The notes beneath the pieces are model-generated. The model was given only the letters and a program-made list of their open reading frames with translations. It was not told the origin of the DNA and ran no database searches. From Candidatus Doudnabacteria bacterium (GTDB lineage Bacteria > Patescibacteriota > Doudnabacteria > UBA920): a DNA stretch of 64,000 nt. Below, in pieces: positions 1,525-64,000 of the stretch. Position 1 is the first letter of the stretch, and the number at the start of each line of letters is the position of its first letter. The position numbers and the translations under genes are program-made. The stretch covers positions 100,481 through 164,480 of the forward strand of contig CAVYGQ010000001.1 of assembly GCA_963768175.1 (NCBI GenBank), in the 5' to 3' direction.

Positions 1525-3408
1525 ATGCCTAAAATTTGGAAAGTAAAAACCAAAATTCCCGATGACATCGCGCAAAATTTATCGGAGTATCCGGAACTTT
1601 TGCGGCAGCTGTTTTTTAATCGTGGATTGACGGGAAAAGACCAAATTCAGGATTTTTTGGAGCCAAAATACGAAAATCTATACAGCCCGTTTTTGTTTAA
1701 AGATATGGAAAAGGCGGTGGAGCGGATTTGGCAGGCAATTGACCGGAGTGAAAAAATTTGTATTTATGGCGACTATGATGCCGACGCGATTACTGCCAAC
1801 GCGGTGCTGGCGCAGACGTTTAAATATTTAGGCGTTGAGATTTTATCGTACATCCCTGACAGGTTTACCGAAGGATACGGCATTAATATCGATGCTCTGT
1901 TAAAGATAAAGGATGAAGGATCAAAGATAATCATAACCGTTGATTGCGGCACTAATTCCGCTGACGCGGCAGAGTTTTGCAAAAAAAATAATATCGATCT
2001 AATTATTACCGACCATCATGAAATCATCGGAGAGGTTCCTGATGCTTACGCGCTGATAAATCCCAAAAATCCCGATGACAATTATCTATACCGCGATATT
2101 ACGGGAGTCGGGGTGGCATTTAAGCTGGCTTGCGGGATTTTATCAAAACGTGAAAAAATTATCGCGCGTTTTGAACCCTCACCCCTAGCCCCTCTCCCAA
2201 AGGGGGAGGGGAAGCCCGGAGTTGTGGGATGGGAAAAGTGGCTGCTTGATTTGGTGGCCATCGGCACGGTGGCGGATTGCCACAGCCTACTGGGGGAGAA
2301 TCGGATATTAGTAAAGTATGGTTTAAAAGTTTTGGCCAAGACGAAGTGGATTGGTTTACGCGCGTTGATGGAATCCGCGGGTTTGGCAGAGGTGTCCCCT
2401 CTGCAGCAGAGGGGACACCTCTGCCCGTTGAAGCCGCTTGATACCTATACCCTAGGCTTTATCATCGCGCCGAGATTAAACGCGGCGGGCAGGCTGGAGC
2501 ATGCCGGCATTGCTTTGGATCTATTGCTGGAAACCGATGCCAATCGCGCAAACGAAAAAGCCCGCAAACTGGAAGCCATAAATACGCGCCGGCAGGGGCT
2601 GACTGCGGAGGTGTTAAGCGAGGCCAAGGAAAAGGTCTTATTGCTTAAGGAAAGAAAAGTTTTGGCACTTGTAGGTGAAGGTTGGCCCAAAGGCGTAATG
2701 GGCCTGGTCGCCGGTAAATTGGCCGAGGAATTTTATAAGCCTACGATTGTGTTGGAAAAAACGGAGAATTTATGCACTGGTTCGGCCAGAACCGCCGGCA
2801 AGTTTGATATTTTGGAGGCTTTAAAGTTTTCTTCCGAGCATTTGTCCAAATTTGGCGGCCATAAACAGGCCGCTGGTTTGAGTTTAGAGGCCAATAAATT
2901 TGACCTTTTTTACCAGAAACTATTGGAATATGCCGAGGTAAAAATTGCGCCGGAATCGGCACAAAAAGCCCTTGAGCTGGAAGCAAAACTTGAGGGTCAT
3001 GACCTAATACCTAACACCTATAACCTAATATCTAAACTCCAGCCATTCGGCGTGGACAATCCCACTCCAAAATTTTTAGTTTCCAATCTTGAAGTTTCAT
3101 CAATCCGCATGGTCGGCAAGCAAACCCAGCATTTGCAGGTGAGATTTATATTGCCTTTTCGGCGTCATTCTGACCCTGAGCGGAGCGAAGGGGAAGAATC
3201 TCAATCAAAAGGAGAGATCCTTCGCTCCGCTCAGGATGACGCCGGGGTGAGTGGCAGGGAAATCGCCGGTATTATGTTTAATGCGCCGGATTTTGCCAAA
3301 ACTTTGAAAATCGGCGATACTGTAGATGTCGCGGCAGAGTTAATTGAGGACGGGTGGAACGGGAAGAGGGAAGTGAAGTTGCGCATCGTAGACCTAAAAA
3401 TTATCTAA
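1525..3408 (+). CDS. recJ: Single-stranded-DNA-specific exonuclease RecJ (DHH/DHHA1), with three in-frame palindromic insertions
   Basis: The DHH motifs (ICIYGDYDADAITA, IITDHH) and a DHHA1 region with an OB-fold C-terminus are present. Extra peptide segments are encoded by palindromes at 2189-2211, 2387-2423 and 3160-3247. Confidence 0.9.
   Translation: MPKIWKVKTKIPDDIAQNLSEYPELLRQLFFNRGLTGKDQIQDFLEPKYENLYSPFLFKDMEKAVERIWQAIDRSEKICIYGDYDADAITANAVLAQTFKYLGVEILSYIPDRFTEGYGINIDALLKIKDEGSKIIITVDCGTNSADAAEFCKKNNIDLIITDHHEIIGEVPDAYALINPKNPDDNYLYRDITGVGVAFKLACGILSKREKIIARFEPSPLAPLPKGEGKPGVVGWEKWLLDLVAIGTVADCHSLLGENRILVKYGLKVLAKTKWIGLRALMESAGLAEVSPLQQRGHLCPLKPLDTYTLGFIIAPRLNAAGRLEHAGIALDLLLETDANRANEKARKLEAINTRRQGLTAEVLSEAKEKVLLLKERKVLALVGEGWPKGVMGLVAGKLAEEFYKPTIVLEKTENLCTGSARTAGKFDILEALKFSSEHLSKFGGHKQAAGLSLEANKFDLFYQKLLEYAEVKIAPESAQKALELEAKLEGHDLIPNTYNLISKLQPFGVDNPTPKFLVSNLEVSSIRMVGKQTQHLQVRFILPFRRHSDPERSEGEESQSKGEILRSAQDDAGVSGREIAGIMFNAPDFAKTLKIGDTVDVAAELIEDGWNGKREVKLRIVDLKII
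3160..3247. repeat. Family-1 palindromic element inserted in-frame in recJ
   Basis: ggcgtcattctgaccctgagcggagcgaagg ... ccttcgctccgctcaggatgacgcc encodes FRRHSDPERSEGEESQSKGEILRSAQDDAG without interrupting the ORF. Confidence 0.8.
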
Positions 3409-3483
3409 ACATCTAAACATATAAACATTTAAGCATTCAGTAGTTGCTTATATGTTTGCATGTTTAAATGTTAATATGTTTAT

Positions 3484-5252: not shown

Positions 5253-5352
5253 TATAATCCGAATTATCCGAATACTGCAATCCAAATGACCCGAATGGGG
5301 GAACGGATAGATTTGGGGCATTCGGATATTAATTCGGGGTATTAGGATTATA
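5253..5352. repeat. ~100-bp inverted-repeat (MITE-like) element, copy A, immediately upstream of mreB
   Basis: tataatccgaattatccgaatactgcaatccaaatgacccgaat ... cattcggatattaattcggggtattaggattatat. The same arms occur at 11212-11658 and 13926-14022. Confidence 0.8.
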
Positions 5353-5357
5353 TTTCC

Positions 5358-7857: not shown

Positions 7858-8068
7858 GTGTGCGCGAACGAGAACCAGATATCTAACGACGGAGAATATC
7901 CGTTGTTTTTTGTTGTTCACACCCCAAAGCTTTAGCGAAGGGGTGTGAACAACTTTAGTTGCAAAAAGGTTCACCCAGCGCTAATTTACGCTGGTTTATT
8001 ATTGATGCTGGTTTAAAATTAAGCGATTGACTTTAAGACTGTTTATGAGTATATTTAAATTAGTGCTG

Positions 8069-8090
8069 GGTGAACGAGCGTATACTATAT
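8069..8090 (+). promoter_or_regulatory. Candidate LexA operator (SOS box) in the dinB promoter
   Basis: GGTGAACGAGCGTATACTATAT matches GGTGAACGTTCGTATATTGTAT upstream of lexA (35562-35585) at 20 of 22 positions. It overlaps a TATACT -10-like hexamer. Confidence 0.45.
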
Positions 8091-8245
8091 CAATATAAAC
8101 ACTAAATCCTAAAAACTAAAAACTAAACAAATTATAAATTCTAAAATATAAAGTACAAACTGCTCCGTTTAAGGTTTCTGTTTAAAAATTTATGATTTAT
8201 GGTTTGTTTAGAGTTTAGAAATTAGATTTTAGATTTTTTGAATTT

Positions 8246-9643
8246 ATGCAATCCGTCATTATGCATCTGGACATGAATAGCTATTTTGCCTCTGTAGAAC
8301 AGCAGGATAATTTAGCCTGGCGTGGAAAGCCTGTGGGGGTATGCGAACATTTGGGAGGCATTATTATTGCGGCTTCGGTAGAGGCTAAGCGTTGGGGCAT
8401 TAAAACCGGCACGCCCGTCTGGGAAGCCCGCAAGCTTTACCCCAAAATTATCATTAGCCCCACGCATCCGGACCGTTACCGTTTTTTTAACCGCTCTATG
8501 GTTAAGGTTGTGTCCGATTACACTTCCGCCGTGGAGGTTTACAGCATAGACGAGGTTTTTGCGGATTTGACCAAGGCTTGCAATGTCCGTCTCTGCCGGC
8601 GTCATTCCGAGCGAGTGCATCCGAGCGAGGAATCTCTTATTAGGCTAAGTGTAAGAGATCCCTTGTCCTCGGATGCACTCGGACTCAGGATGACGCCTGG
8701 GGAGAGCATGGCCGACCCTTTTGAAGAAGCTGTAAACATCGCTAAGGAAATCAAGCGGCGGTTTAAGGCCGAAGTGGGAGACTGGCTAAGGTGCAGCATC
8801 GGCATCGCCGAAAATAAATTGCTGGCCAAAATCGGTTCGGATTTTAAAAAACCCGATGGACTAGTGGTTATAACCGACAAGGGGCATCCTTGTGCAGCAC
8901 AAGGATGCCCCTTGTGGCTTTCTAAAGACGATATATACGATCGTCTGCGTCTTACCGACATCCCCGGTATTGGCCGGCGCCAAGAGAATAATTTAAACCA
9001 ACTTGGCATTAAGACGCTTAAAGAATTACGTGATTTTCCCAAAAGCCATTTAGTTGCCAGGTTCGGCAACATTATGGGCCATCATTTGTATAATATCGGG
9101 CAATTGCAGGGAACTTGGAAAGCTCCCGTCCATCAGGAACAAGAAATTAAGTCCATGGGCCATATGTATACTTTGCCGCAGGAGTTCCGCCGGCCGGAAT
9201 TTTTTATGCCCGTTCTCTATAAATTATGCGAGATGGTCGGCCGGCGCCTGCGCAGGAAGAGTTTAATGGGCAACCTTATTTACTTTTATTGTCACGATAA
9301 AGATTATCAGGGATTCGGCAAAAGCGTTAAGCTTGGATATTTTGTGCAGGACGGCAGGGAAATATTTTTGGTTGCCGCGGATATATACGCGGATCTGTTA
9401 CGCGGATCTAAACGCGGAGCGTTGGGGGTAAAGCTCATCGGCGTTACCGTGGCAGGCCTTCGGCCTTATGTCCATCAGCTTAGTTTGTTTGGTGATGTTG
9501 AGCGGCGGCTTAAGGCGACAAAGGCCCTGGACAAGATTAACGACAAATACGGGGAATTTACCATTTTGCGCGCGCAAATGCTGCCGGCCGGCAAAGCCTT
9601 TGCCGATTCCATAGGTTTTGGCAGGGTAAAGGAGCTTGGGTAG
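8246..9643 (+). CDS. dinB: DNA polymerase IV (Y-family, DinB) with two in-frame palindromic insertions
   Basis: The translation shows HLDMNSYFASVE, the finger/palm motifs and a little-finger domain. Insertions are encoded at 8594-8698 (family 1) and 8879-8915 (a perfect palindrome). Confidence 0.9.
   Translation: MQSVIMHLDMNSYFASVEQQDNLAWRGKPVGVCEHLGGIIIAASVEAKRWGIKTGTPVWEARKLYPKIIISPTHPDRYRFFNRSMVKVVSDYTSAVEVYSIDEVFADLTKACNVRLCRRHSERVHPSEESLIRLSVRDPLSSDALGLRMTPGESMADPFEEAVNIAKEIKRRFKAEVGDWLRCSIGIAENKLLAKIGSDFKKPDGLVVITDKGHPCAAQGCPLWLSKDDIYDRLRLTDIPGIGRRQENNLNQLGIKTLKELRDFPKSHLVARFGNIMGHHLYNIGQLQGTWKAPVHQEQEIKSMGHMYTLPQEFRRPEFFMPVLYKLCEMVGRRLRRKSLMGNLIYFYCHDKDYQGFGKSVKLGYFVQDGREIFLVAADIYADLLRGSKRGALGVKLIGVTVAGLRPYVHQLSLFGDVERRLKATKALDKINDKYGEFTILRAQMLPAGKAFADSIGFGRVKELG
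8594..8698. repeat. Family-1 palindromic element inserted in-frame in dinB
   Basis: ggcgtcattccgagcgagtgcatccgagcgagg ... cctcggatgcactcggactcaggatgacgcc encodes CRRHSERVHPSEESLIRLSVRDPLSSDALGLRMTPG. Confidence 0.8.
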
Positions 9644-13925: not shown

Positions 13926-14022
13926 ATATAATCCGAATTATCCAAATGGGAACAATCCAAATGCTCCGAAAAGTAGAGCATTTGGGGCATTCGGATATTG
14001 ATTCGGGGAATTAGGATTATAT
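13926..14022. repeat. MITE-like inverted-repeat element, copy C
   Basis: tataatccgaattatccaaatgggaacaatccaaatgctccgaaaagtagagcatttggggcattcggatattgattcggggaattaggattatat. Confidence 0.8.
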
Positions 14023-15765: not shown

Positions 15766-15901
15766 TAAATCCGAAGCACGAAATCCGAAATTCGAAACAA
15801 ATCCTAATATTTAAATTCAAATGTTTTAAACCCAAAGTTTTGAATTTCTGATTTTAAAATTTAGATATTGTTTCGGATTTCGATATTCGGATTTCGAATT
15901 T

Positions 15902-16840: not shown

Positions 16841-17016
16841 GATACTGATATACGGATGCATTCGGATAATACCGATAATGCGGATATGGCGAAGCAGTAT
16901 TATCCGTTTCATCAGTATCAATCAGCATATCGGCATCAAATCTATGAAAATCAAAATCAAATCCGGCAAAAGCCAGAAATATAAAATCAAAATAAAGAAA
17001 CTAAAATAAAACAACC

Positions 17017-21085: not shown

Positions 21086-21706
21086 TTATGCGAACTGTTG
21101 CAACTGTCCTAAAATGGCCTGTTCCAGCTGAACAGTATCATAATGGCGTTGAGGCTTGATGTGTAAAATATTTAACTCTGAGGCTCTCAAAGCCCCGTCT
21201 AAAAAATCATCTCTTAATTTTCTATTGAAATAATTATGGGTATAATCATCCAGTTCAATAACCAAAAGTGGCGACAAATAAACTTTGTCAAAGATTACAA
21301 AATCTACTGTCTTTTTGTTTATCCTGTTAAAGTTGCTGTAAGTGGAATTTGTGCCGTATCTTTCCAGTCCGCCTTGGACTTCAATGATTCGGGATAAGGC
21401 AACCTGTGGCATAATAAAATACCTGTCCTTGATTATTTCCTGTAGCACTCCGAAAAACTTGTATTCGGTTTGGGTCATCAGGTATCGCTTTTTTCTGAAT
21501 GGATAAATTTTATCGTCTTTTTTTACTTCCTGAATTTTTGTATTGCCAGCATTACTAGGCGGTAAAGGTATCTCGGAATAATTTTGCTTTGAGCTTTTTA
21601 TGATGTAACTGGCAAGAATGATTATGATTATTAAACCAAATAAAAAATCCATAAATTTGCTTTTAGAAACACAAAGCCCCGGTCCAGCCGGGCTTTTACA
21701 CCCCAT
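21086..21706 (-). CDS. DUF2726-domain protein (NERD/restriction-endonuclease-like fold), membrane-anchored
   Basis: An N-terminal TM helix precedes the DUF2726 signature (TVDFVIFDKVYLSPLLVIELDDYTH ... RDDFLDGAL...LNILHIK). Confidence 0.55.
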   Translation of the reverse strand: MGCKSPAGPGLCVSKSKFMDFLFGLIIIIILASYIIKSSKQNYSEIPLPPSNAGNTKIQEVKKDDKIYPFRKKRYLMTQTEYKFFGVLQEIIKDRYFIMPQVALSRIIEVQGGLERYGTNSTYSNFNRINKKTVDFVIFDKVYLSPLLVIELDDYTHNYFNRKLRDDFLDGALRASELNILHIKPQRHYDTVQLEQAILGQLQQFA

Positions 21707-22000
21707 ACCCCTTTCGGGATATGACCATAAGACAGTAGCTGAACGCGGGGTTCAGTATGTCTTATGGTTTTACAGCCGTGCCTGATTAAAGGTTTAGGCC
21801 ATTCAGTTGTGATTAAATTATACCAAACTTGACAACAATTTTAAAGGGGTGTATGGTGGAGTTAGTTCATTAAAAAGTTAATAATTAAACGTAAGTTTTA
21901 TTTCTCCTCCCTCGGAGTAAGACAGGGGCTATGCCGTTTTGAACACAAAAACGGTGTGGCGTTTTGACCGCTTGTCTCAGCCATTAGAGGCCTTACAAAA

Positions 22001-22207
22001 GTGTTTGTGGGGTTTAATATGTCTGGGTTCAGTAATGAGCTAAAACAGCGTTTAATTGATTATTTTCAAACGAAATACGGACAAAAACTAACCTCAGAAC
22101 AAGCTGAGGCTTTTTTATTGTCCCTTGCGAATCTGTATTCGCTGGTGGTAGAGCGGCGGGCGGGCCCGCAGGGCCAGCCCGACCGCCGCTCTACCTGTAT
22201 TACTTGA
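22001..22207 (+). CDS. Small hypothetical protein upstream of the recombinase (possible accessory or directionality factor)
   Basis: The 68-aa ORF ends in a GC-rich hairpin (gagcggcgggcgggcccgcagggccagcccgaccgccgctc). No motifs were recognised. Confidence 0.25.
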   Translation: MFVGFNMSGFSNELKQRLIDYFQTKYGQKLTSEQAEAFLLSLANLYSLVVERRAGPQGQPDRRSTCIT

Positions 22208-22322
22208 ATTAAGCTACACATAAGGGGATTTAATAATTACATAATTAATTTTAAGTTCTGTCAAAATAATTTGTATTTTTCTTTTGGTTAGATATATAAT
22301 CAAGCTAATTAAAAAATCAAAT

Positions 22323-29124: not shown

Positions 29125-29225
29125 GAGGCCACTTTTATGTGGTACTCCGATGCATGAGGCGCGCGGATGCGACAATCCGCGCGTTTCAATCTTAAATTTG
29201 ACGGATTTTGGGGGGTTTGGTATAA

Positions 29226-29476
29226 TATCAGCAATTAAACCCCCACACCAATTTGATATAAATTTGTTAAGGGTTTAGCAAAATCCTCCAACCATTTCAA
29301 AATGAATTGGTGTGGGGGTAAACCAAAGACAGTTGGCCTCCGACTGAAACGTCGGAGTTAATTATCATCGCAAGATGATTGCCCACCGAGGAAGTGTAGC
29401 GCGCCCATTCATGGGCTGCAGCCGATAAATCGGCGCGCTACATCACACTCGGGTAAGCCCGAGTATTTTTGTTCGG
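29226..29476 (+). ncRNA. Candidate structured sRNA (promoter, five consecutive hairpins, intrinsic terminator); class unknown
   Basis: A TGGTATAAT -10 at 29217-29225 is followed by stems aaacccccacaccaatt/aattggtgtgggggtaaacc, ctccgac/gtcggag, atcatc-gcaa-gatgat and gtagcgcgcc/ggcgcgctac. The final stem cactcgggtaagcccgagtg is followed by atttttg. Confidence 0.3.
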
Positions 29477-29542
29477 CGTCATCCTGAACGAAGTGAAGGA
29501 TCTCATTAAAGAGATTCCTCGCTGCGCTCGGAATGACGCCGG
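29472..29542. repeat. Family-1 palindromic element in the rplJ leader region
   Basis: ttcggcgtcatcctgaacgaagtgaaggatctc ... gagattcctcgctgcgctcggaatgacgccgg. Confidence 0.8.
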
Positions 29543-29728
29543 TGAGAGTTGACGGATATTTATTGGTTCACCCTGTTAAATAATTCGCCAAAGGCGAATT
29601 GCCGCGAAGCGGCATTTAACAGGGACACCCTGTTAAATAATTTTTTAGTAAAAAATTACTGCGTAGCAGTATTTAACAGGGTAAAGGTCGATACTAGGCA
29701 CTTAGCACTTAGCACTAATAACTAACTT

Positions 29729-30244: not shown

Positions 30245-30332
30245 TCATTTAAACATCAAAACATTTAAACATATAAACACGAGGCAGACGCTTAAATGCT
30301 TATATGATTAAATGTTTAAATGAAAGGAATAT

Positions 30333-30744: not shown

Positions 30745-30769
30745 TTTTTATTGCTATAAAATTATTTTA

Positions 30770-30870
30770 ATGTCATCTCGAGCGAGTGCATCCGAGCGAA
30801 GGATCCATTCTTTGATAATATAGCATTATTATTTCAAAGTCATCCCGAGGGCTTTAGCCCGAGGGATCTC
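30770..30870. repeat. Family-1-related palindromic elements (two units) downstream of rplL
   Basis: gtcatctcgagcgagtgcatccgagcgaaggatc and gtcatcccgagggctttagcccgagggatc are each hairpin-forming. A further unit lies at 30958-30995. Confidence 0.7.
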
Positions 30871-30902
30871 TTCTAAGATAATATCGATTAAAATTAAATA
30901 TT

Positions 30903-30936
30903 TAAAACCGCCCCCGTTGCAAGGGGACGGTTTTTA
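30903..30936 (+). terminator. Rho-independent terminator of the rplJL operon
   Basis: aaaaccgcccccgttgcaaggggacggttttt is a GC stem followed by a T-run. Confidence 0.8.
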
Positions 30937-31005
30937 ACTTAAAATGTATTATAAATAGATCCCTCGTCGCTTTGCTACTCGGGATGGCAGCTATAATGTA
31001 AATTT

Positions 31006-32127: not shown

Positions 32128-32172
32128 GCGAAAGGAAAGATCCCTCGCTTCGCTCGGGATGACTTTTCTATA
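32128..32172. repeat. Family-1 palindromic element half (gaaagatccctcgcttcgctcgggatgac)
   Basis: It is the reverse-complement version of the family-1 core. Confidence 0.7.
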
Positions 32173-34218: not shown

Positions 34219-34405
34219 GAAAAAGTTGGCGGATTTAAGTTTTAAGATTTAAGCCAACCCAAAACTCGGGCTTTAATCTTTAATCCTAAATCATTAATCT
34301 GCCTATAATTATACAACATTTTTTGTCAAATTCAAAACCCAAATATGGATAATCTTTATAAGTATGCTATAATTGGAATAATGACATGAATTAAAAGAAT
34401 TAAAT

Positions 34406-35324: not shown

Positions 35325-35552
35325 CAATAACAACAACTATAACTATAACAAACCCAAGATGAGCAAGTTATAGTTATTTTTATTTTATTGTTATAGTTAA
35401 ACTTGTGGATAACTTTAAGGTAAACGTTAGTTTACCCCGTACCAAATTTGGTGGATAACCAAATTTGGTGTTTTTTTATAATTATCAAAAAAAATCAAAA
35501 TGTCCAATAAAATAAGCATTTGATGCGGGGTTTACCTTGTTTTTATTGGTAT

Positions 35553-36868: not shown

Positions 36869-37304
36869 AGGTTAAATAAACACCCTCAGCAGAGACGGTC
36901 TTCCGGTAAGCTGGAAGACCGCTCTGCGAGGGCGCCCTGCGCCAAGAGGGGTTAACACCGGAGGGGCTGGCGCAGGATTTTTTGGGGGGAAGAGGCCTGA
37001 GGAGGCACTACAGTTTGGCCTCAACCCCCTGCTGCCTAAGGAACTTTTGACACCTCTCCAGAGCACGAGAGAGGAGAGGGCTTAGGAGGTTACCTCCCGG
37101 AATCTAAAGTATCCGGGAATGTCCCTGGGGGCAGCGAGCTTATGATTCCGTCCTATAATGAATTTTTGAGCCGGCGGGAGCCCACAGGCGTGGGTCTCGG
37201 AGGAGAAGGATCCCCCGCCGGCTGTCCCGAAGTATGTAAATATATTATAGGATTTTCTGTAAAGAAAGCAAGACTAAAAACACCCCAAATAATTGGGGTG
37301 TTTT
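36869..37304 (+). ncRNA. GC-rich, highly structured non-coding region ending in a bidirectional terminator; candidate ncRNA of unknown class
   Basis: The region is ~55-60% GC with nested stems (cagagacggtcttccggtaagctggaagaccgctctg; gccggcggg...cccgccggc). No plausible ORF is present. The terminator caccccaaataattggggtg lies at 37281-37300 with flanking A/T runs. Confidence 0.3.
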
Positions 37305-37379
37305 TTGGTAGCGCTACAGGGAATCGGACCCTGATTTGTTGGCTGAGAACCAACCGTCCTAACCATTAGACGATAGCGC
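37305..37379 (-). tRNA. tRNA-Glu (anticodon CUC)
   Basis: The minus strand reads GGCGCUAUCGUCUAAUGGUUAGGACGGUUGGUUCUCAGCCAACAAAUCAGGGUCCGAUUCCCUGUAGCGCUACCA. It folds as a cloverleaf with anticodon loop UUCUCAG and an encoded CCA. Confidence 0.85.
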
Positions 37380-39149: not shown

Positions 39150-39151
39150 TT

Positions 39152-39240
39152 TTTCTACTAAATACTAAAGTAACTAAATACGAAAGTGAGCAAAAGAAGG
39201 TTTAGTATTTCGCCCCCTTCGTATTTAGTAGAAAAAAAGA
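39152..39240. terminator. Long hairpin (bidirectional terminator-like) after the GH1 gene
   Basis: tttctactaaatac ... gtatttagtagaaaaaaa is an extended stem with flanking T/A runs. Confidence 0.4.
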
Positions 39241-46788: not shown

Positions 46789-46949
46789 ATATTTTGACCG
46801 TAATTGCGATAAACAGTCGCCACGGCAGTTAAAAATGAATACAAAAGTATTTTACAATAAAATCGTAAATATGGCAAAAATAATTAAAGCTACAGGGGAC
46901 ACTTCTTCCAGAAGTGTCCCCTGTAGCGGTTGATCAGTTTTTGACAAAA

Positions 46950-47385
46950 ACAGAGAGAGGGTTAGAATAAATTTAACCAATCCAAAGGGACAGGAGCCAA
47001 ACTGTGTCCTTCGGGGCACTCAATAGGCTGAAAGGCCTTATCAGTTTGGTTTAAAAGGGAGGGAATGGCCATATGACTGTGACCAATTCCGTCATGAAGA
47101 ACGGCTAAGAAGATAAGTTGTCACCCCACGGACGCGATCGTGGGGACAAAATCGCCTAAGGATCCGGCTAACGGACTGGAGACCAAAGGTGCCCGGGAGA
47201 TAGCCTGCCTATTTGCCGTGGGTAAGGTTTGTACCGGGCAGCAATCATAAGCTTGGCTGCGGGCGCAGCCACTCCTTCGGCGAAGTTTTTAGGAGAATTC
47301 AGGGTAGCACAAGCTACCAAGGAATAGCGATATTCCGCCCCACTTGATGCCGGCAAGTGGGGTTCGTTTTTGTCTTTTTACAAAA
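46950..47385 (+). ncRNA. Structured ~430-nt non-coding region with an intrinsic terminator; candidate ncRNA (RNase P RNA-sized, class unconfirmed)
   Basis: It has multiple stems (ctgtgtccttcggggcac; caccccacggacgcgatcgtggggac; ggctgcgggcgcagcc). The terminator gccccacttgatgccggcaagtggggttcgtttttgtcttttt lies at 47337-47380. It sits in a 750-bp divergent intergenic gap between aspS and the exonuclease gene. Confidence 0.3.
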
Positions 47386-47540
47386 AATTTTCTATACTAT
47401 ATGAGTAAAAATCAATTAAAAGGTATGATTGGATTTCCCCTCTTAAAATAAGAGGGGATTAAGGGGTGATATTTATCATCGGCGATATCCCCTCCTAGCC
47501 TCCCCTTATACTAAGGGGAGGGAAATCGCAGGAAACCAAA

Positions 47541-50811: not shown

Positions 50812-50967
50812 TAGGATTTACGTGGTCGCCAGTTGAGGACAGCCCTCTGGCACAGTATCGGTAATAATTAAAACGATTTATAAATATCAAGTCATTATTT
50901 ATTTAGTGGCGTTGGCTTGCCAGAGGACTGTCCTCAAGCTCGTTGGCATCAACAATTTACTCAAATG

Positions 50968-51414
50968 GAAATATCAAAATTGGGATTAGAAGAGGCCAAA
51001 AAAGTTAAGACTTACGACCACCGGGGCAAAGAAAACGGTTGGTTGGTGGAACTGTATAAAGATAAGGGAACTGGCAAAAAAACCGAAAGCTACCTTACAG
51101 CGGTTTTGCCCGGGGCCTTTAAGGGTTACCACTTGCATCGCGTACGCGCAGCGCGCTATGTGGCCATAAAGGGTAAAATGAAAATTACTTGCTACGAAAA
51201 CCACGATGGCAAATGGCAGTCTACCGAGTTTATTTTATCGGCTGACAACCCCCAAAGATTGTTCATTCCAAAAAATGTGGCAACCGGTTTGAAAAATATC
51301 GGCAACGAAGAAGCCTGGCTAATAAATTATCCGGACCCGGCCTACGATCCATTATTGGAAGATGAACAGGTGGAATATACGAAGGAGGAATTAGAGCAAG
51401 GGATTATTAAATAA
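50968..51414 (+). CDS. rmlC: RmlC-like cupin (dTDP-4-dehydrorhamnose 3,5-epimerase family)
   Basis: It has a cupin beta-barrel pattern (D.RG...G.......GYHLH......YV.IKGK) and sits directly upstream of rmlB-rmlD-rmlA. The ATG at 50968 is preferred over the listed start at 50917. Confidence 0.6.
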   Translation, partial: EISKLGLEEAKKVKTYDHRGKENGWLVELYKDKGTGKKTESYLTAVLPGAFKGYHLHRVRAARYVAIKGKMKITCYENHDGKWQSTEFILSADNPQRLFIPKNVATGLKNIGNEEAWLINYPDPAYDPLLEDEQVEYTKEELEQGIIK

Positions 51415-51438: not shown

Positions 51439-52458
51439 ATGAAGATATTAATTACCGGCGGAGCTGGATTTATCGGTTCCAACTTTGCGCATTATTGGAT
51501 AAAGCATTATCCGGACGGCCAAATTGTGGTTCTGGATAAGTTGACTTATGCCGGGAATCTAGAGAATTTATCTGATGTTATCAATCGCATAGAGTTCGTC
51601 AAAGGAGATATTTGCGATGAAGCGGTTGTCGGACGGGTAATGAAAGGCGTGGATGTGGTGGTGCATTTTGCGGCGGAAACTCATGTTGACAGGTCAATCC
51701 AAAATCCTGATGTTTTTGTCCGGACTAATGTTTTAGGCACGCAAGTTTTGCTTGAGGCGGCAAAAAAATATCAGGTAAAAAGATTTCATCACGTCTCCAC
51801 CGACGAAGTTTTCGGTAGCCTGCCGCTGGGCTCAAAAGAAAAGTGGAATGAGCAAACGCCTTACAACCCACGCAGCCCTTACTCGGCCAGTAAAGCCGCA
51901 AGTGACCATTTAGTCCGCGCTTATTATCATACCTACGGCTTGCCGATAACTATCAGCAACTGTGCCAATAACCTTGGCCCTTATATGTTTCCGGAAAAAT
52001 TAATTCCTCTTGCAATTACCAATCTTTTGGAAGGCAAAAAGGTGCCGATTTACAAACCAGGCAACCAAGTCCGCGAATGGCTGTATGTGGAAGACCATTG
52101 CAGCGGCATTGATGCGATTTTGGAAAAAGGGAAAATCGGTGAAACGTATTTTATCGGGCCCGACAATCCCGAGTTTACAAATTTGGAAGTTATCAGGAAA
52201 CTTTTGGTGCTTATGAAAGCGGGCGATGATATGCTGGAAATGGTCAGCGACCGCCCGGGGCACGACCAAAAATATGCGATGGATCATAGTAAAATATCAC
52301 GCGAACTTGGCTGGCGACCAAAGTACGGGCTGGATGATTCTTTAAAAATGCTTGTTGATTGGTATACGAAAAATCAAGACTGGTGGAAAGAGGTTAAAAG
52401 CGGGGAATATCAAAAGTATTACGAACGGCAATATAAAGGGAAAACAAATAACCGATAA
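51439..52458 (+). CDS. rmlB: dTDP-glucose 4,6-dehydratase
   Basis: The motifs ILITGGAGFIGSN and YSASKAASDHLVRAY (YxxxK) and an SDR-extended fold are present. Confidence 0.95.
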   Translation: MKILITGGAGFIGSNFAHYWIKHYPDGQIVVLDKLTYAGNLENLSDVINRIEFVKGDICDEAVVGRVMKGVDVVVHFAAETHVDRSIQNPDVFVRTNVLGTQVLLEAAKKYQVKRFHHVSTDEVFGSLPLGSKEKWNEQTPYNPRSPYSASKAASDHLVRAYYHTYGLPITISNCANNLGPYMFPEKLIPLAITNLLEGKKVPIYKPGNQVREWLYVEDHCSGIDAILEKGKIGETYFIGPDNPEFTNLEVIRKLLVLMKAGDDMLEMVSDRPGHDQKYAMDHSKISRELGWRPKYGLDDSLKMLVDWYTKNQDWWKEVKSGEYQKYYERQYKGKTNNR

Positions 52459-52521
52459 TTGATAATTAATAACTCTGGAAACTGTAAGTAGTTATCGGTT
52501 ATAAATTAATAGTTATAAGTT

Positions 52522-53376
52522 ATGGGCACTATTTTAATTCTAGGGTCGCAAGGCTTGCTAGGCGGGGAGTTTAAAAGGACTTTTTCGCGCGCTTTGGGTT
52601 GGGACAGAAAAGAAATCGATATTAGCGAGGCGGAAAGTTTGGAAAACAAAATTTTAGCGCTTGGGCAAAAGCCCGCCGCCATTATTAATTGCGCGGCATA
52701 TAATAACGTTGACGGCGCGGAAAAAGAAAAAGACAAAGCTTTTTTAATAAATGCCACGGCTGTGGGCAATTTGGCCAAGGTGTGCGGTAAATTGGATATT
52801 TTATTGGTGCATTTTTCGACTAATTACGTGTTTGACGGCGAAAAAGGCGAGTACGCGGAAATCGACCAGCCTAACCCCATATCCGTATATGGGCAGTCTA
52901 AATATGAAGGGGAAAAATTGCTGGAGGCAAACTGCTTGAGATACTATTTGATTCGGACTTCGGTTTTGTTTGGCCAGGAGGCGGAAAGCCCGTATGCGAA
53001 AAAGAGTTTTATAGAAGTTATGTTGGGTTTATCAGAAAAAACTGCTACAATTAAGGCAGTAAATGACGAAACCAACAGCCTGACCTATGCAGCCGATTTG
53101 GCCAAAGCCGTAGAGGATTTAATTGTTAAAAAGTTTTCTTACGGCATTTACCATATAATTAACAGTGGGCAAGCGTCTTGGTATGATTTTGCCAGGGAAA
53201 TTTTTAGCATCAGCGGCAAAAAAATTAATTTGGTTCCGGTAAAGTCTACGGAATTTTTGCGCCAAGCCAAGCGGCCGAAAAAAGCCGTCTTGCTGAATAC
53301 CAAACTGCCGCCGCTTCGGAGCTGGCAGGAAGCGCTGAAAGAATACTTGAATCAGGAATCAAGAAGTATGAATTAG
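52522..53376 (+). CDS. rmlD: dTDP-4-dehydrorhamnose reductase
   Basis: An ILGSQGLLGGE Rossmann motif is present, and the length and YxxxK are consistent with RmlD. Confidence 0.88.
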   Translation: MGTILILGSQGLLGGEFKRTFSRALGWDRKEIDISEAESLENKILALGQKPAAIINCAAYNNVDGAEKEKDKAFLINATAVGNLAKVCGKLDILLVHFSTNYVFDGEKGEYAEIDQPNPISVYGQSKYEGEKLLEANCLRYYLIRTSVLFGQEAESPYAKKSFIEVMLGLSEKTATIKAVNDETNSLTYAADLAKAVEDLIVKKFSYGIYHIINSGQASWYDFAREIFSISGKKINLVPVKSTEFLRQAKRPKKAVLLNTKLPPLRSWQEALKEYLNQESRSMN

Positions 53377-53381
53377 GGTCT

Positions 53382-53440
53382 CCTAATTCCTAATTCCTAA
53401 TTCCTAATTCCTAATTCCTAATTCCTAATTCCTAATTCCT
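53382..53440 (+). repeat. Heptanucleotide microsatellite (CCTAATT)x8 plus a partial unit, ending 5 nt before the rmlA start codon
   Basis: It is a perfect tandem repeat in the rmlD-rmlA intergenic spacer and replaces any recognisable RBS. Confidence 0.9.
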
Positions 53441-53444
53441 TTTC

Positions 53445-54179
53445 ATGAAAGGCATTATTCTCTCCGGCGGCAGCGGCACGCGCCTGCATCCTTTAACCAA
53501 AGTTACCAGTAAACAGCTTTTGCCGGTTTACAATAAACCGATGATTTTGTATCCGCTGGAAACCCTGCTTAAGGCCGGCATCAAAGACATTTTGATAATT
53601 ATCGCGCCGGACCACCCGGGTGACTATATGAAACTGTTGGGCTCAGGCCGCGAGTTTGGCGCCCGTTTTTCTTACGAAATTCAAGATAAGCCGGAAGGCC
53701 TGGCCCAGGCTTTTATTATTGCCGAAGATTATATTGGAAGCGATAACGTTTGCATGATTTTAGGCGACAATATTTTTGAAGACGATTTTTCCAAAACTAT
53801 CAAAAATTTCAAAAAAGGCGGGCACGTTTTTGCCAAAAAGGTGACCGATCCCCAGCGGTTCGGCGTTGTTAAATTCAACGAAAATATGGACGCGGTTAAA
53901 ATTGAAGAAAAGCCCAAGGAGTTTTTGTCCGATTACGCAATTACCGGGCTTTATCTTTACGACAATCGCGTAGTACAAGCGGCAAAATCGGTTAGGCCAT
54001 CGGCGCGGGGCGAATTGGAAATTACGGAATTGCACAACTGGTATTTAAAAAGGAATGAACTGAAAGTAGACATAGTCAAAGGGCAGTGGATAGACGCCGG
54101 CACTTTTGAATCGCTGCACCGCGCCGGCGAGCTTATGCGCCGGAAGGCATTAAATAAACCGACACCAATCCACGAATGA
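53445..54179 (+). CDS. rmlA: Glucose-1-phosphate thymidylyltransferase
   Basis: The motif MKGIILSGGSGTRLHPLT is present, with a short (244 aa) nucleotidyltransferase fold. Confidence 0.9.
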   Translation: MKGIILSGGSGTRLHPLTKVTSKQLLPVYNKPMILYPLETLLKAGIKDILIIIAPDHPGDYMKLLGSGREFGARFSYEIQDKPEGLAQAFIIAEDYIGSDNVCMILGDNIFEDDFSKTIKNFKKGGHVFAKKVTDPQRFGVVKFNENMDAVKIEEKPKEFLSDYAITGLYLYDNRVVQAAKSVRPSARGELEITELHNWYLKRNELKVDIVKGQWIDAGTFESLHRAGELMRRKALNKPTPIHE

Positions 54180-54226
54180 GACACGAATGACGCGAATCCA
54201 AACCTAAATCCGTATTCGTATCATTC

Positions 54227-56339: not shown

Positions 56340-56436
56340 AAAAAGAGGTTATGATATTCCTATTTTACCACGTAATTAACAACTTGACAAATTTTAACTT
56401 TTATGCTAGTATGCTATGTTGATATAAATTCCATAT

Positions 56437-63338: not shown

Positions 63339-63589
63339 GACGCGAATTTTGCGCGTAAGTAGGGGCGGCCATTGGCCGCCCCTAACTTTGTTTTACTGAT
63401 TATTTCGGGCAGGAATTACATTGTTTGTGGATATGTTACAATAGCTTAGAGTTTTAGCCGTATTTAAGACTACTTGCAATAAAGGATAAAAGTGCTATTA
63501 TAAATTAAACGGCGTAATAATAAACAAAAACAAACAGCCCAAAAGAGCTGTTTTATTTGTAATATTGGAAAAATCAGAAAATCAGATAA

Positions 63590-64000
<411 letters not shown>

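Follow-up and report, generated by a model that had tools for sequence, protein, structure and literature searches.

What does a perfect tandem repeat do when it takes up most of the gap between two neighboring genes? The question is raised by a 64,000-nt stretch of a Candidatus Doudnabacteria bacterium (contig CAVYGQ010000001.1, positions 100,481 to 164,480 of the forward strand; here referred to as the window), in which eight copies of the heptamer CCTAATT separate rmlD from the start codon of rmlA. An earlier note on this DNA had suggested that the repeat might be a phase-variable switch for dTDP-rhamnose synthesis. Our analysis favors a different reading, to which we give a probability of about one in two: the tract would be the Shine-Dalgarno (SD)-independent leader of rmlA, a single-stranded track, or standby site, on which ribosomes could land and scan. 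Relatives of this RmlA belong to the Patescibacteria, or Candidate Phyla Radiation (CPR), mostly to Candidatus Doudnabacteria and then to Falkowbacteria and Yanofskybacteria. Bacteria of the CPR, uncultivated and with very small genomes, are believed to rely on host cells, and to our knowledge almost nothing is known of gene regulation or translation start in them.

A perfect heptamer array ahead of rmlA

The junction is made up of the following features, with family cut-offs here and below taken from the NCBIfam equivalog models.

52522..53376, forward strand: rmlD, dTDP-4-dehydrorhamnose reductase, the upstream cistron (TIGR01214 at 257 bits, cut-off 224; PF04321)
53339..53378, forward strand: inverted, degenerate version of the repeat (AGGAATC AAGAAGT ATGAATT AGG), encoding the RmlD tail NQESRSMN and the TAG stop
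53377..53381, forward strand: GGTCT, loop or linker from the inverted arm to the array
53382..53437, forward strand: (CCTAATT)x8 array (Tandem Repeats Finder [TRF], regular expression, shuffled-probe control)
53438..53444, forward strand: CCTTTTC, flank between array and ATG, kept in the related locus L165 (CCTTTTCT) and forming a weak predicted mini-hairpin with ATGAAAGG
53445..54179, forward strand: rmlA-like glucose-1-phosphate thymidylyltransferase gene, short 244-aa form, the downstream cistron (TIGR01207 at 304 bits, under the cut-off of 361; PF00483, 5e-60)

A regular expression matched all eight units without mismatch at 53382-53437 of the forward strand, which confirms the perfect eight-unit repeat reported in the earlier note. 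TRF called 53381-53440 with a period of 7, 8.6 copies, 100% match and a score of 120; the period-7 pattern runs on as CCT to 53440, and the non-repeat flank CCTTTTC occupies 53438-53444. The rmlD TAG stop (53374-53376) and the rmlA ATG (53445) enclose 68 nt, of which the array takes up 59, and the order at the junction is GGTCT, (CCTAATT)x8, CCTTTTC, ATG. The description of the array as filling the spacer is right for 59 of the 68 nt, whereas the end once given to it, at 53444, takes in the flank CCTTTTC. Its distance from the ATG, given as 5 nt, also has to be corrected: the periodicity stops 4 nt short of the ATG, and the last full unit 7 nt short of it. The rmlA start itself is fixed by ~160 orthologues, all of which begin MKG or MRG. 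The array has the composition A16 C18 G0 T25, with 31% C, and is flanked by GGGTCT on its 5' side and CCTTTTCATG on its 3' side. Probing with three units, at no more than 2 mismatches, gave 6 matches, all within the array, compared to 0.01 expected from 100 dinucleotide shuffles, and CCTAATT occurs in tandem nowhere else in the 64-kb window.

A telomere-like repeat and an assembly artefact were considered as sources of the array and rejected by reasoning, since the array lies inside an operon that is syntenic in L165, is shorter than a sequencing read and is present in an independent assembly. The latter, the Logan assembly of ERR10755942, is 99.97% identical to the window, with one single-nucleotide polymorphism per ~3.5 kb (one in each of two contigs), and its RmlA and RmlD are identical to the window's. 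Both of these contigs terminate within the array, one from each side. Because a k=31 graph breaks only at an array of 38 nt or more, the assembly must hold at least 5 units, a lower bound from which the exact count is irrecoverable. We found no further alleles of the same species: the best match was 86% among species-representative genomes, 86% among Joint Genome Institute (JGI) metagenome contigs and 91% in a search of 5.8 billion proteins. Exact look-ups and the members of 90% clusters, searched for a second strain, returned only the source contig, of 949 kb, and one Logan run.

Translation start and folding at the rmlD-rmlA junction

The earlier note had expected a ribosome-binding site (RBS) at the array, so that unit number could alter either the RBS-to-start context or the spacing of an internal promoter. 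For comparisons across loci we used the window together with 165 related loci, all of them centered on rmlA (1.37 Mb in total); the gene maps behind the SD and distance statistics are crude longest-open-reading-frame (ORF) calls, and these figures are approximate. An SD-like 4-mer stands ahead of ~10% of genes and in 7.4% of shuffled upstreams. No G peak precedes the starts in 710 unambiguous contexts, where G stays at or below 0.15 from -20 to -1, A+T makes up 75-85% of the upstreams and T is favored at -1 (59%). By the same start-context statistics, leaders in the lineage contain ~12% C. None of the ~160 rmlA orthologues has an SD motif. These data show that the Doudnabacteria-like lineage initiates essentially without SD sites and give no reason to expect an RBS here.

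The promoter variant of the proposal fared no better. We found no sigma-70-like -35/-10 hexamer pair in or across the array, and its 56 bp are too long for a -35/-10 spacer; the nearest promoter-like site lies at 53159-53187, inside rmlD. Elsewhere, in the divergent spacer between the CAP-domain gene and the sortase-like gene (56340-56436 in the window and 6977-7076 in L165), a promoter with TTGACA, 17 nt, TAGTAT and an extended -10 (TGC) is kept in both species, which shows that recognizable, conserved sigma-70-type promoters are in use in the lineage. rmlD and rmlA are same-strand neighbors with no promoter or terminator nearby, which implies that they are probably co-transcribed. Added or lost units, being identical, leave the AUG-proximal 25-30 nt constant. 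Both proposed switch mechanisms thus fail, as SD pairing is not used, the AUG context does not change and promoter hexamers are missing; with neither AUG-adjacent sequence nor promoter spacing altered, changes in copy number cannot switch rmlA on or off. What stands is the observation, in a member of the CPR, of a long, perfect, slippage-prone heptamer tract directly before a gene that serves the synthesis of a surface-glycan precursor.

We then considered the structure of the RNA, for which all folding values are predictions. The spacer alone (53377-53444) has a folding energy of 0.0 kcal/mol (z +0.7). The tract is free of G, and hence no ATG, GTG or TTG lies anywhere from the stop of rmlD to the start of rmlA. 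The inverted arm at 53339-53378 is predicted to pair with the first 5-6 units, and arm and array together reach -26.2 kcal/mol on the sense strand (z -2.3) and -40.1 kcal/mol on the antisense strand (z -4.7, with 0 of 200 shuffles as good). The antisense folds better because G-to-A decay in the arm leaves A.C mismatches in the sense RNA and G.U pairs in the antisense RNA. A sense-RNA hairpin as the functional unit was tried and is not claimed: the antisense is far more stable here and is also the stabler strand in 13 of 19 structured rmlA-junction spacers, a picture made mixed by the opposite tendency across structured same-strand spacers in general. At the array, Rfam returned no family at gathering scores, and the matches to miRNA-like hairpins are at chance level (E of 0.03 or more).

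The position of the helix sets this junction apart. In the other structured rmlA-junction hairpins the helix ends at most 11 nt from the AUG, and the median for all 19 structured spacers is 6 nt; the sole other exception is L159, whose A-rich spacer of 36 nt has a helix of no more than 6 bp. The spacer in the window leaves 41 nt unpaired ahead of the rmlA AUG and is the only structured junction spacer with a long unpaired tail. The contrast with helices that end near the AUG at other junctions suggests that the state in the window is derived, one arm having been expanded and homogenized past the pairing reach of its partner.

To describe the effect of unit number, we modeled arrays with n from 0 to 14, each preceded by the 150 nt that lie upstream. 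The modeled minimum free energy plateaus at n = 6-7, the upstream complement absorbing ~6 units. The modeled unpaired probability from -25 to -1 is 0.24-0.33 at n = 1-6, 0.50 at n = 8 and 0.54-0.57 beyond, and that from -12 to +12 levels off at ~0.27 from n = 5 on. The region around the start is also predicted to form a mini-hairpin at 53433-53457 (CCUUUUC AUG AAAGG; CCUUUUCAUGAAAGG) of -5.0 kcal/mol, independent of the array, with the rmlA AUG in its loop.

These features are what the leader reading would call for. The tract, G-free, start-codon-free and predicted to be unstructured, begins at the rmlD stop and reaches to within 4 nt of the rmlA AUG, in a lineage lacking SD sites; new ribosomes, or ones just terminated on rmlD, would travel along it to the first downstream AUG. 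Copy number would have at most a graded, saturating effect, with the stop-to-start distance growing in 7-nt steps: past the ~6 units sequestered by the rmlD 3' end, extra units would be free leader. This role in standby or re-initiation is inferred from sequence, as is any influence of copy number on the expression of rmlA.

A contingency locus acting as a rheostat would make more of the same units. On this explanation the array would be hypermutable in populations and its length would tune rmlA output and with it rhamnose-type surface glycans, in the manner of the hmw loci. The predicted complementary arm upstream, with ~6 units sequestered and further units changing modeled leader accessibility about two-fold, fits such a role, as does a gene that supplies cell-surface glycan synthesis, and hmw is a precedent: there a heptameric simple sequence repeat (SSR) in a 5' untranslated region (UTR) comes with a hairpin arm, and expression falls in inverse proportion to n (PMC12721329). 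However, the hmw tracts need 11 or more repeats, ~10 of them paired in a very stable hairpin of 122 nt, whereas here there are 8 repeats, a weak sense hairpin (-26.2 kcal/mol, z -2.3) and an arm that pairs better on the antisense. The array is the long, perfect, slippage-prone tract of a contingency locus (8 perfect 7-nt units), but not one whose length would be expected to alter expression: it is intercistronic, involves no promoter hexamers or ORF, leaves the AUG-adjacent sequence constant with n and has a weak modeled effect on accessibility. In addition, the only other assembly of the organism breaks in the array. We consider the rheostat unlikely. A bolder form of it would be a first for the CPR/Patescibacteria: the rmlD 3' end would sequester ~6 CCUAAUU units, slippage beyond these would alter the length of the G-free single-stranded track ahead of an AUG without an SD site and so tune RmlA and the supply of rhamnose-type glycan within an episymbiont population, and period-7 spacers would serve lineage-wide as a translation-coupling device in place of SD sites. 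This form is quite unlikely.

Descent and conservation of the array

Comparison of orthologous rmlA junctions bears on where the array came from. Spacing there is usually tight, with a 4-nt ATGA overlap in 43 of 152 loci and a 1-10 nt spacer in 29 of the 152, and at the other extreme spacers exceed 100 nt; such tolerance in relatives counts in favor of the leader reading and against the rheostat. Among 69 rmlA-junction spacers of 18 nt or longer, 7 was the best period in 30, and it was the best in 14 of the 17 strongly periodic ones. Of 164 loci, 16 have units of the form CTAATTY at the rmlA junction: 4 loci carry two copies, 8 carry three, 2 carry four and 1 carries five (L021, where the five-unit junction is a two-armed hairpin), while eight are present in the window only. 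Copy number at the rmlA junction has therefore changed between species, from 8 here to 3 in L165 and 2-5 elsewhere, and this variation at one junction (8, 5, 4, 3 and 2) is a point in favor of the rheostat. By these comparisons the CTAATTY arrays ahead of rmlA are orthologous, and the one in the window is their most expanded allele.

Four loci suggest how the unit arose. In L025, L039, L058 and L084 the array begins within the rmlD tail (GAA TTT CTA ATT TCT AAT TTC TAA = EFLISNF*), from which we conclude that the unit was probably seeded by duplication of the rmlD stop region; the junction of L084 (= L166) reads (TTTCTAA)x3. In the window, the RmlD profile match stops at residue 278 of 284, and the C-terminal tail NQESRSMN is not conserved. 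Replication slippage would then have generated a heptanucleotide SSR in the cupin-rmlB-rmlD-rmlA cluster, seeded at the rmlD 3' end (...GAA TTY CTA A...) and inherited along with the 5' flank of rmlA in some of the related species. The remaining features of this cluster are as follows.

50917-51414, forward strand: cupin gene, upstream in the same-strand cluster
51439-52458, forward strand: rmlB (TIGR01181 at 458 bits, over the equivalog cut-off)
52459..52521, forward strand: rmlB-rmlD spacer with another heptamer family (GATAATT / AGTTATA), a member of the class in the same operon
54180..54226, forward strand: rmlA-DUF5656 spacer, a short two-armed hairpin with degenerate units ACGAATG / ATTCGTA (sense -10.2 kcal/mol, z -2.9)

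The gene names in the earlier note hold for rmlD and rmlB, which score above their cut-offs, and not fully for rmlA, whose short form falls below the equivalog cut-off. The cupin matches only Polysacc_synt_C and FdtA, plus Cap5F at E = 0.007, and is weakly FdtA/Cap5F-like; profile searches of the cluster did not confirm a canonical RmlC.

The most informative relative is L165 (JGI 3300037086 Ga0334812_002661), which comes from an independent metagenome and carries (CCTAATT)x3 followed by CCTTTTCT and ATG. Its RmlA is 89% identical to that of the window by BLASTP and 87% by global alignment, and shared genes are ~83% identical in DNA. At positions 2387-3422 of L165 synteny is kept, rmlD and the cupin gene are missing from the locus, and the rmlB product ends in ...GETLIPNS*. 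Since LIPNS* is the RmlD tail in relatives, rmlD was evidently deleted while the array stayed with rmlA. The endpoint of this deletion lies just upstream of the heptamer array. Among the nearest RmlA relatives, L163 (91%), L167 and L168 have no array and L164 (90%) has a 9-mer array; closest relatives with other junctions point to fast turnover at this position.

Conservation between the window and L165 suggests that the sequence is not free to drift. The 30 nt ahead of rmlA are identical at 28 of 30 positions, compared to 54% identity at four-fold degenerate sites in rmlA, and the rmlA-DUF5656 spacer (25 of 52) is unalignable. Comparable conservation was seen solely in the divergent promoter region that separates the CAP-domain gene from the sortase gene (76 of 100). 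With the repeated unit counted once (7 + 7 sites), identity by chance has a probability of ~0.54^14, or ~2e-4. The CCTAATT unit and its 3' flank thus appear to be under constraint, and because they are conserved beyond neutral sites, a purely neutral reading is inadequate.

The same conservation, 28 of 30 positions between species where neutral sites reach 54%, is what would be expected of an array of binding sites for a sequence-specific RNA- or DNA-binding factor acting on rml genes, as has been proposed for the TAACTGA repeats that abut start codons in Beggiatoaceae, with proteins of the S1, Csp or CsrA type as candidates. Such a factor would also account for a C-rich composition that is atypical for leaders of the lineage and for the genes at which the unit recurs: the exact CCTAATT unit stands ahead of rmlB in L021 as well (4.7 copies), and CTAATTY units precede rmlA in 12 loci. 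TAACTGA repeats are similarly laid out, as 2-6 copies ending a few nucleotides before starts in RBS-poor spacers (PMC4679880). Yet no candidate factor was found, and the enrichment at rmlA junctions is explained by common descent. Most relatives, even at 90-91% RmlA identity, have no array or another unit, which would make the regulator dispensable, and elsewhere in the genome the unit changes with the junction, whereas TAACTGA is one unit throughout its genome. On balance, binding sites for such a factor are quite unlikely.

Heptamer spacers across the lineage and in other bacteria

The array is one of a large class. In the 1.37 Mb, arrays of at least 3 copies numbered 147 at period 7, compared to 27, 38, 37 and 17 at periods 6, 8, 9 and 10, and 90 of the 147 lie in non-ORF DNA, ~9.5% of the total. 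Repeat units change from junction to junction in the window, with no genome-wide consensus unit. The locus therefore shares with the known class of heptameric SSRs a tandem 7-nt unit in non-coding DNA and an excess of period 7, but not a consensus unit common to the genome. Within the class the array ahead of rmlA is the second longest of the 147, and its eight perfect units imply recent slippage, which speaks for the rheostat. Against this, 49 comparisons of short arrays of the class, at loci from near-identical to ~9% diverged, turned up 0 differences in copy number, a test of low power given short arrays and mostly near-identical pairs. Spacers of this kind also stand ahead of housekeeping genes, in the window those for MreB, RsmH/MraW, a PBP transpeptidase, L10, L7/L12, RNase H and a Y-family polymerase, which argues that the heptamer spacer is a generic type rather than the mark of a contingency gene. 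The longest heptamer array in the data set is a perfect (ATAACAC)x18 at 3604-3730 of L151, which starts 9 nt past the stop codon of rmlA and continues up to the end of the contig.

Many of these spacers are predicted to fold. A z below -2 was obtained for 43% of same-strand spacers of 35-160 nt, 62% of convergent and 15% of divergent ones; among structured same-strand spacers the sense strand is more stable in 81 and the antisense in 53. Within the window, degenerate 7-9 nt units form two inverted arms at 3409-3483, 5270-5357, 8090-8245, 13926-13997 and 15766-15901, and further two-armed spacers lie at 16841-16900, 30245-30303, 34230-34300, 35325-35400, 39150-39240, 52459-52521, 54180-54226 and 63570-63656. 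The two-armed hairpins of same-strand spacers extend from the upstream stop almost to the downstream start, each junction having its own unit, and we found no description of this architecture in CPR genomes in the literature. The Y-family (DinB/IMS) polymerase gene at 8246-9643 follows one of the largest repeat-rich spacers, at 7858-8245.

Two functional interpretations of the class as a whole were rejected. Although 54 of the 147 heptamer arrays have their end no more than 15 nt from a start, stops are abutted at a similar frequency (29 versus 39, not significant); with 41 arrays nearer a start and 31 nearer a stop (p = 0.29), they simply fill short spacers. Nor do they act as three-frame stop devices, since 25 of 45 have stops in all frames on the sense strand, the same as for the antisense and for unit-shuffled controls (24.6 +/- 2.5). 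Start-adjacent arrays also show no strand-specific composition, with C exceeding G in 32 and G exceeding C in 20 (p = 0.13).

The lack of start-over-stop preference, strand bias and excess of all-frame stops would be expected if the array were a neutral slippage product, in which a polymerase- or repair-driven bias toward 7 nt litters short spacers and drift led to 8 copies. The excess of period 7 over many loci, each with its own unit, and the rapid turnover at the rmlA junction among relatives also agree with this explanation, and polymerase slippage has been proposed for heptameric SSRs (PMC4692102). A nucleotide search for (CCTAATT)n covered a viral collection, while other large DNA collections were scanned by protein-guided search only. 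Arrays of at least 4 units were present in 21 stretches of viral contigs with G+C contents of 27-70% (L169-L189; e.g., IMGVR_UViG_3300013383_000066 and 3300028178_000001), and several IMG/VR contigs carry CCTAATT or close variants (TTCCTAATTCCTCTT) at multiple separate sites, as a contig-wide repeat family. The origin of CCTAATT in unrelated contigs across this range of composition is a further point for neutrality. It bears as well on the possibility, raised in the earlier note, of a generic satellite, which holds insofar as heptamer arrays are generic and CCTAATT arrays occur in unrelated viral contigs, but not within the window, where the tandem is found only here. In the CPR loci a dispersed satellite of this unit was likewise rejected: 13 of 29 CTAATTY arrays sit immediately ahead of rmlA or rmlB, and several of the others are opposite arms of these junction hairpins. 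What neutrality does not explain is that unit and flank are kept across ~17% DNA divergence while neighboring spacers are unalignable, and that the tract is the only leader of rmlA in an organism without SD sites and so cannot be irrelevant to initiation. We regard neutrality alone as quite unlikely.

A single-stranded leader for SD-independent initiation remains our preferred reading, and some observations weigh against it. In the model, the mini-hairpin keeps the region from -12 to +12 ~27% unpaired at any copy number. The array contains 31% C, compared to ~12% in leaders of the lineage, and its exact unit is conserved, neither of which a generic leader needs; a sequence-specific reader may be involved. 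Finally, eight perfect copies are far over the norm of the class (median of 4.3, 95th percentile of 5.4), which could reflect selection for length or mutability, not drift.

The window holds other features of interest. A LOOT RNA (Rfam RF03000) at 21690-21800 on the reverse strand scored 70.3 bits, against a gathering score of 46.4, and lies in the 577-nt divergent spacer 21707-22283. Long (390-750 nt), G+C-rich, self-complementary intergenic regions at 46789-47540, 36869-37358, 29176-29728 and 7858-8245 had no Rfam match at gathering scores and may be structured RNAs or remnants of mobile elements. A dispersed 25-nt element, GTCATCCTGAGCGNAGCGAAGGATC, is present in 4 copies with up to 3 mismatches, where 0 are expected: 1434-1458 and 29478-29502 on the forward strand, and 3216-3240 and 32139-32163 on the reverse strand. 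It usually sits within a longer palindrome (...GGCGTCATCC...GGATGACGCC...), with similar copies at 30745-31005, and looks like a small repeated palindromic element.

Given their presumed host dependence, surface glycans probably matter for attachment in CPR bacteria. If copy number varies in populations and tunes RmlA, the CPR would have its first contingency-like locus here; if not, the junction is still a clean example of slippage building and remodeling operon junctions, gene tails and gene loss included, in reduced genomes. Either way, the locus shows intercistronic spacers made largely of 7-nt repeats, one of which has been kept with its flank before rmlA while its copies went from 3 to 8.

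Among known systems, ribosome standby sites and the structure-free leaders of SD-less mRNAs are an established concept, and they are not normally perfect tandem repeats. The rmlA array resembles them as a single-stranded, G-poor tract, by our model, beside a start codon at which SD pairing is unused.

The closest analog in layout is found in H. influenzae, where hmw1A and hmw2A carry (ATCTTTC)n in the 5' UTR, with 11-63 repeats, a promoter of their own and proven variation; a very stable 122-nt hairpin incorporates 10 repeats, processing by RNase III is proven and expression is inversely proportional to n (PMC12721329). The two share a tandem 7-nt unit upstream of a surface-related gene, a repeat arm with a degenerate complementary arm, surplus repeats that are free and a graded effect, which for rmlA is a modeled one. 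Unlike hmw, the rmlA array has 8 repeats and a weak sense hairpin (-26 kcal/mol), is intercistronic and places its repeats in the 3' arm, abutting the AUG.

TAACTGA repeats of marine Beggiatoaceae, some cyanobacteria and Bacteroidetes form 169 sets of 2-6 copies that are strongly start-oriented and also occur before ribosomal protein genes, a translational role being suspected and unproven (PMC4679880). The rmlA array likewise ends 4 nt before an ATG without an SD site, and its class also precedes essential genes; in contrast to TAACTGA, each junction has its own unit, many form two-armed hairpins and starts are not preferred over stops.

The broadest match is to the over-represented intergenic heptamers of cyanobacteria and Xanthomonas, namely the short tandemly repeated repetitive (STRR) sequences of Calothrix and Nostoc, the GGGGATT x26 tract between pecE and pecF in Nostoc, and GGGAATC in Xanthomonas (PMC4692102, citing Mrazek 2007). 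Such SSRs lie within operons, are in some cases inverted and vary in length and sequence at one junction between close species, with polymerase slippage proposed as their source (PMC4692102). The excess of period 7 in intergenic DNA, the placement at operon junctions, the inverted arms of some spacers and the change between species at one junction are all common to the CPR spacers. The STRR and GGGAATC types are, however, G-rich, candidates for G-quadruplexes, with a family consensus per genome, whereas CPR units are A/T-rich and locus-specific, and CCTAATT is G-free. We found no earlier description in the literature of intergenic heptameric SSRs in the Doudnabacteria-like lineage. The rmlA array is thus an addition to the known intergenic heptameric SSRs, distinct in its locus-specific unit, in being A/T-rich and free of G, and in its position at an intercistronic junction without an SD site.

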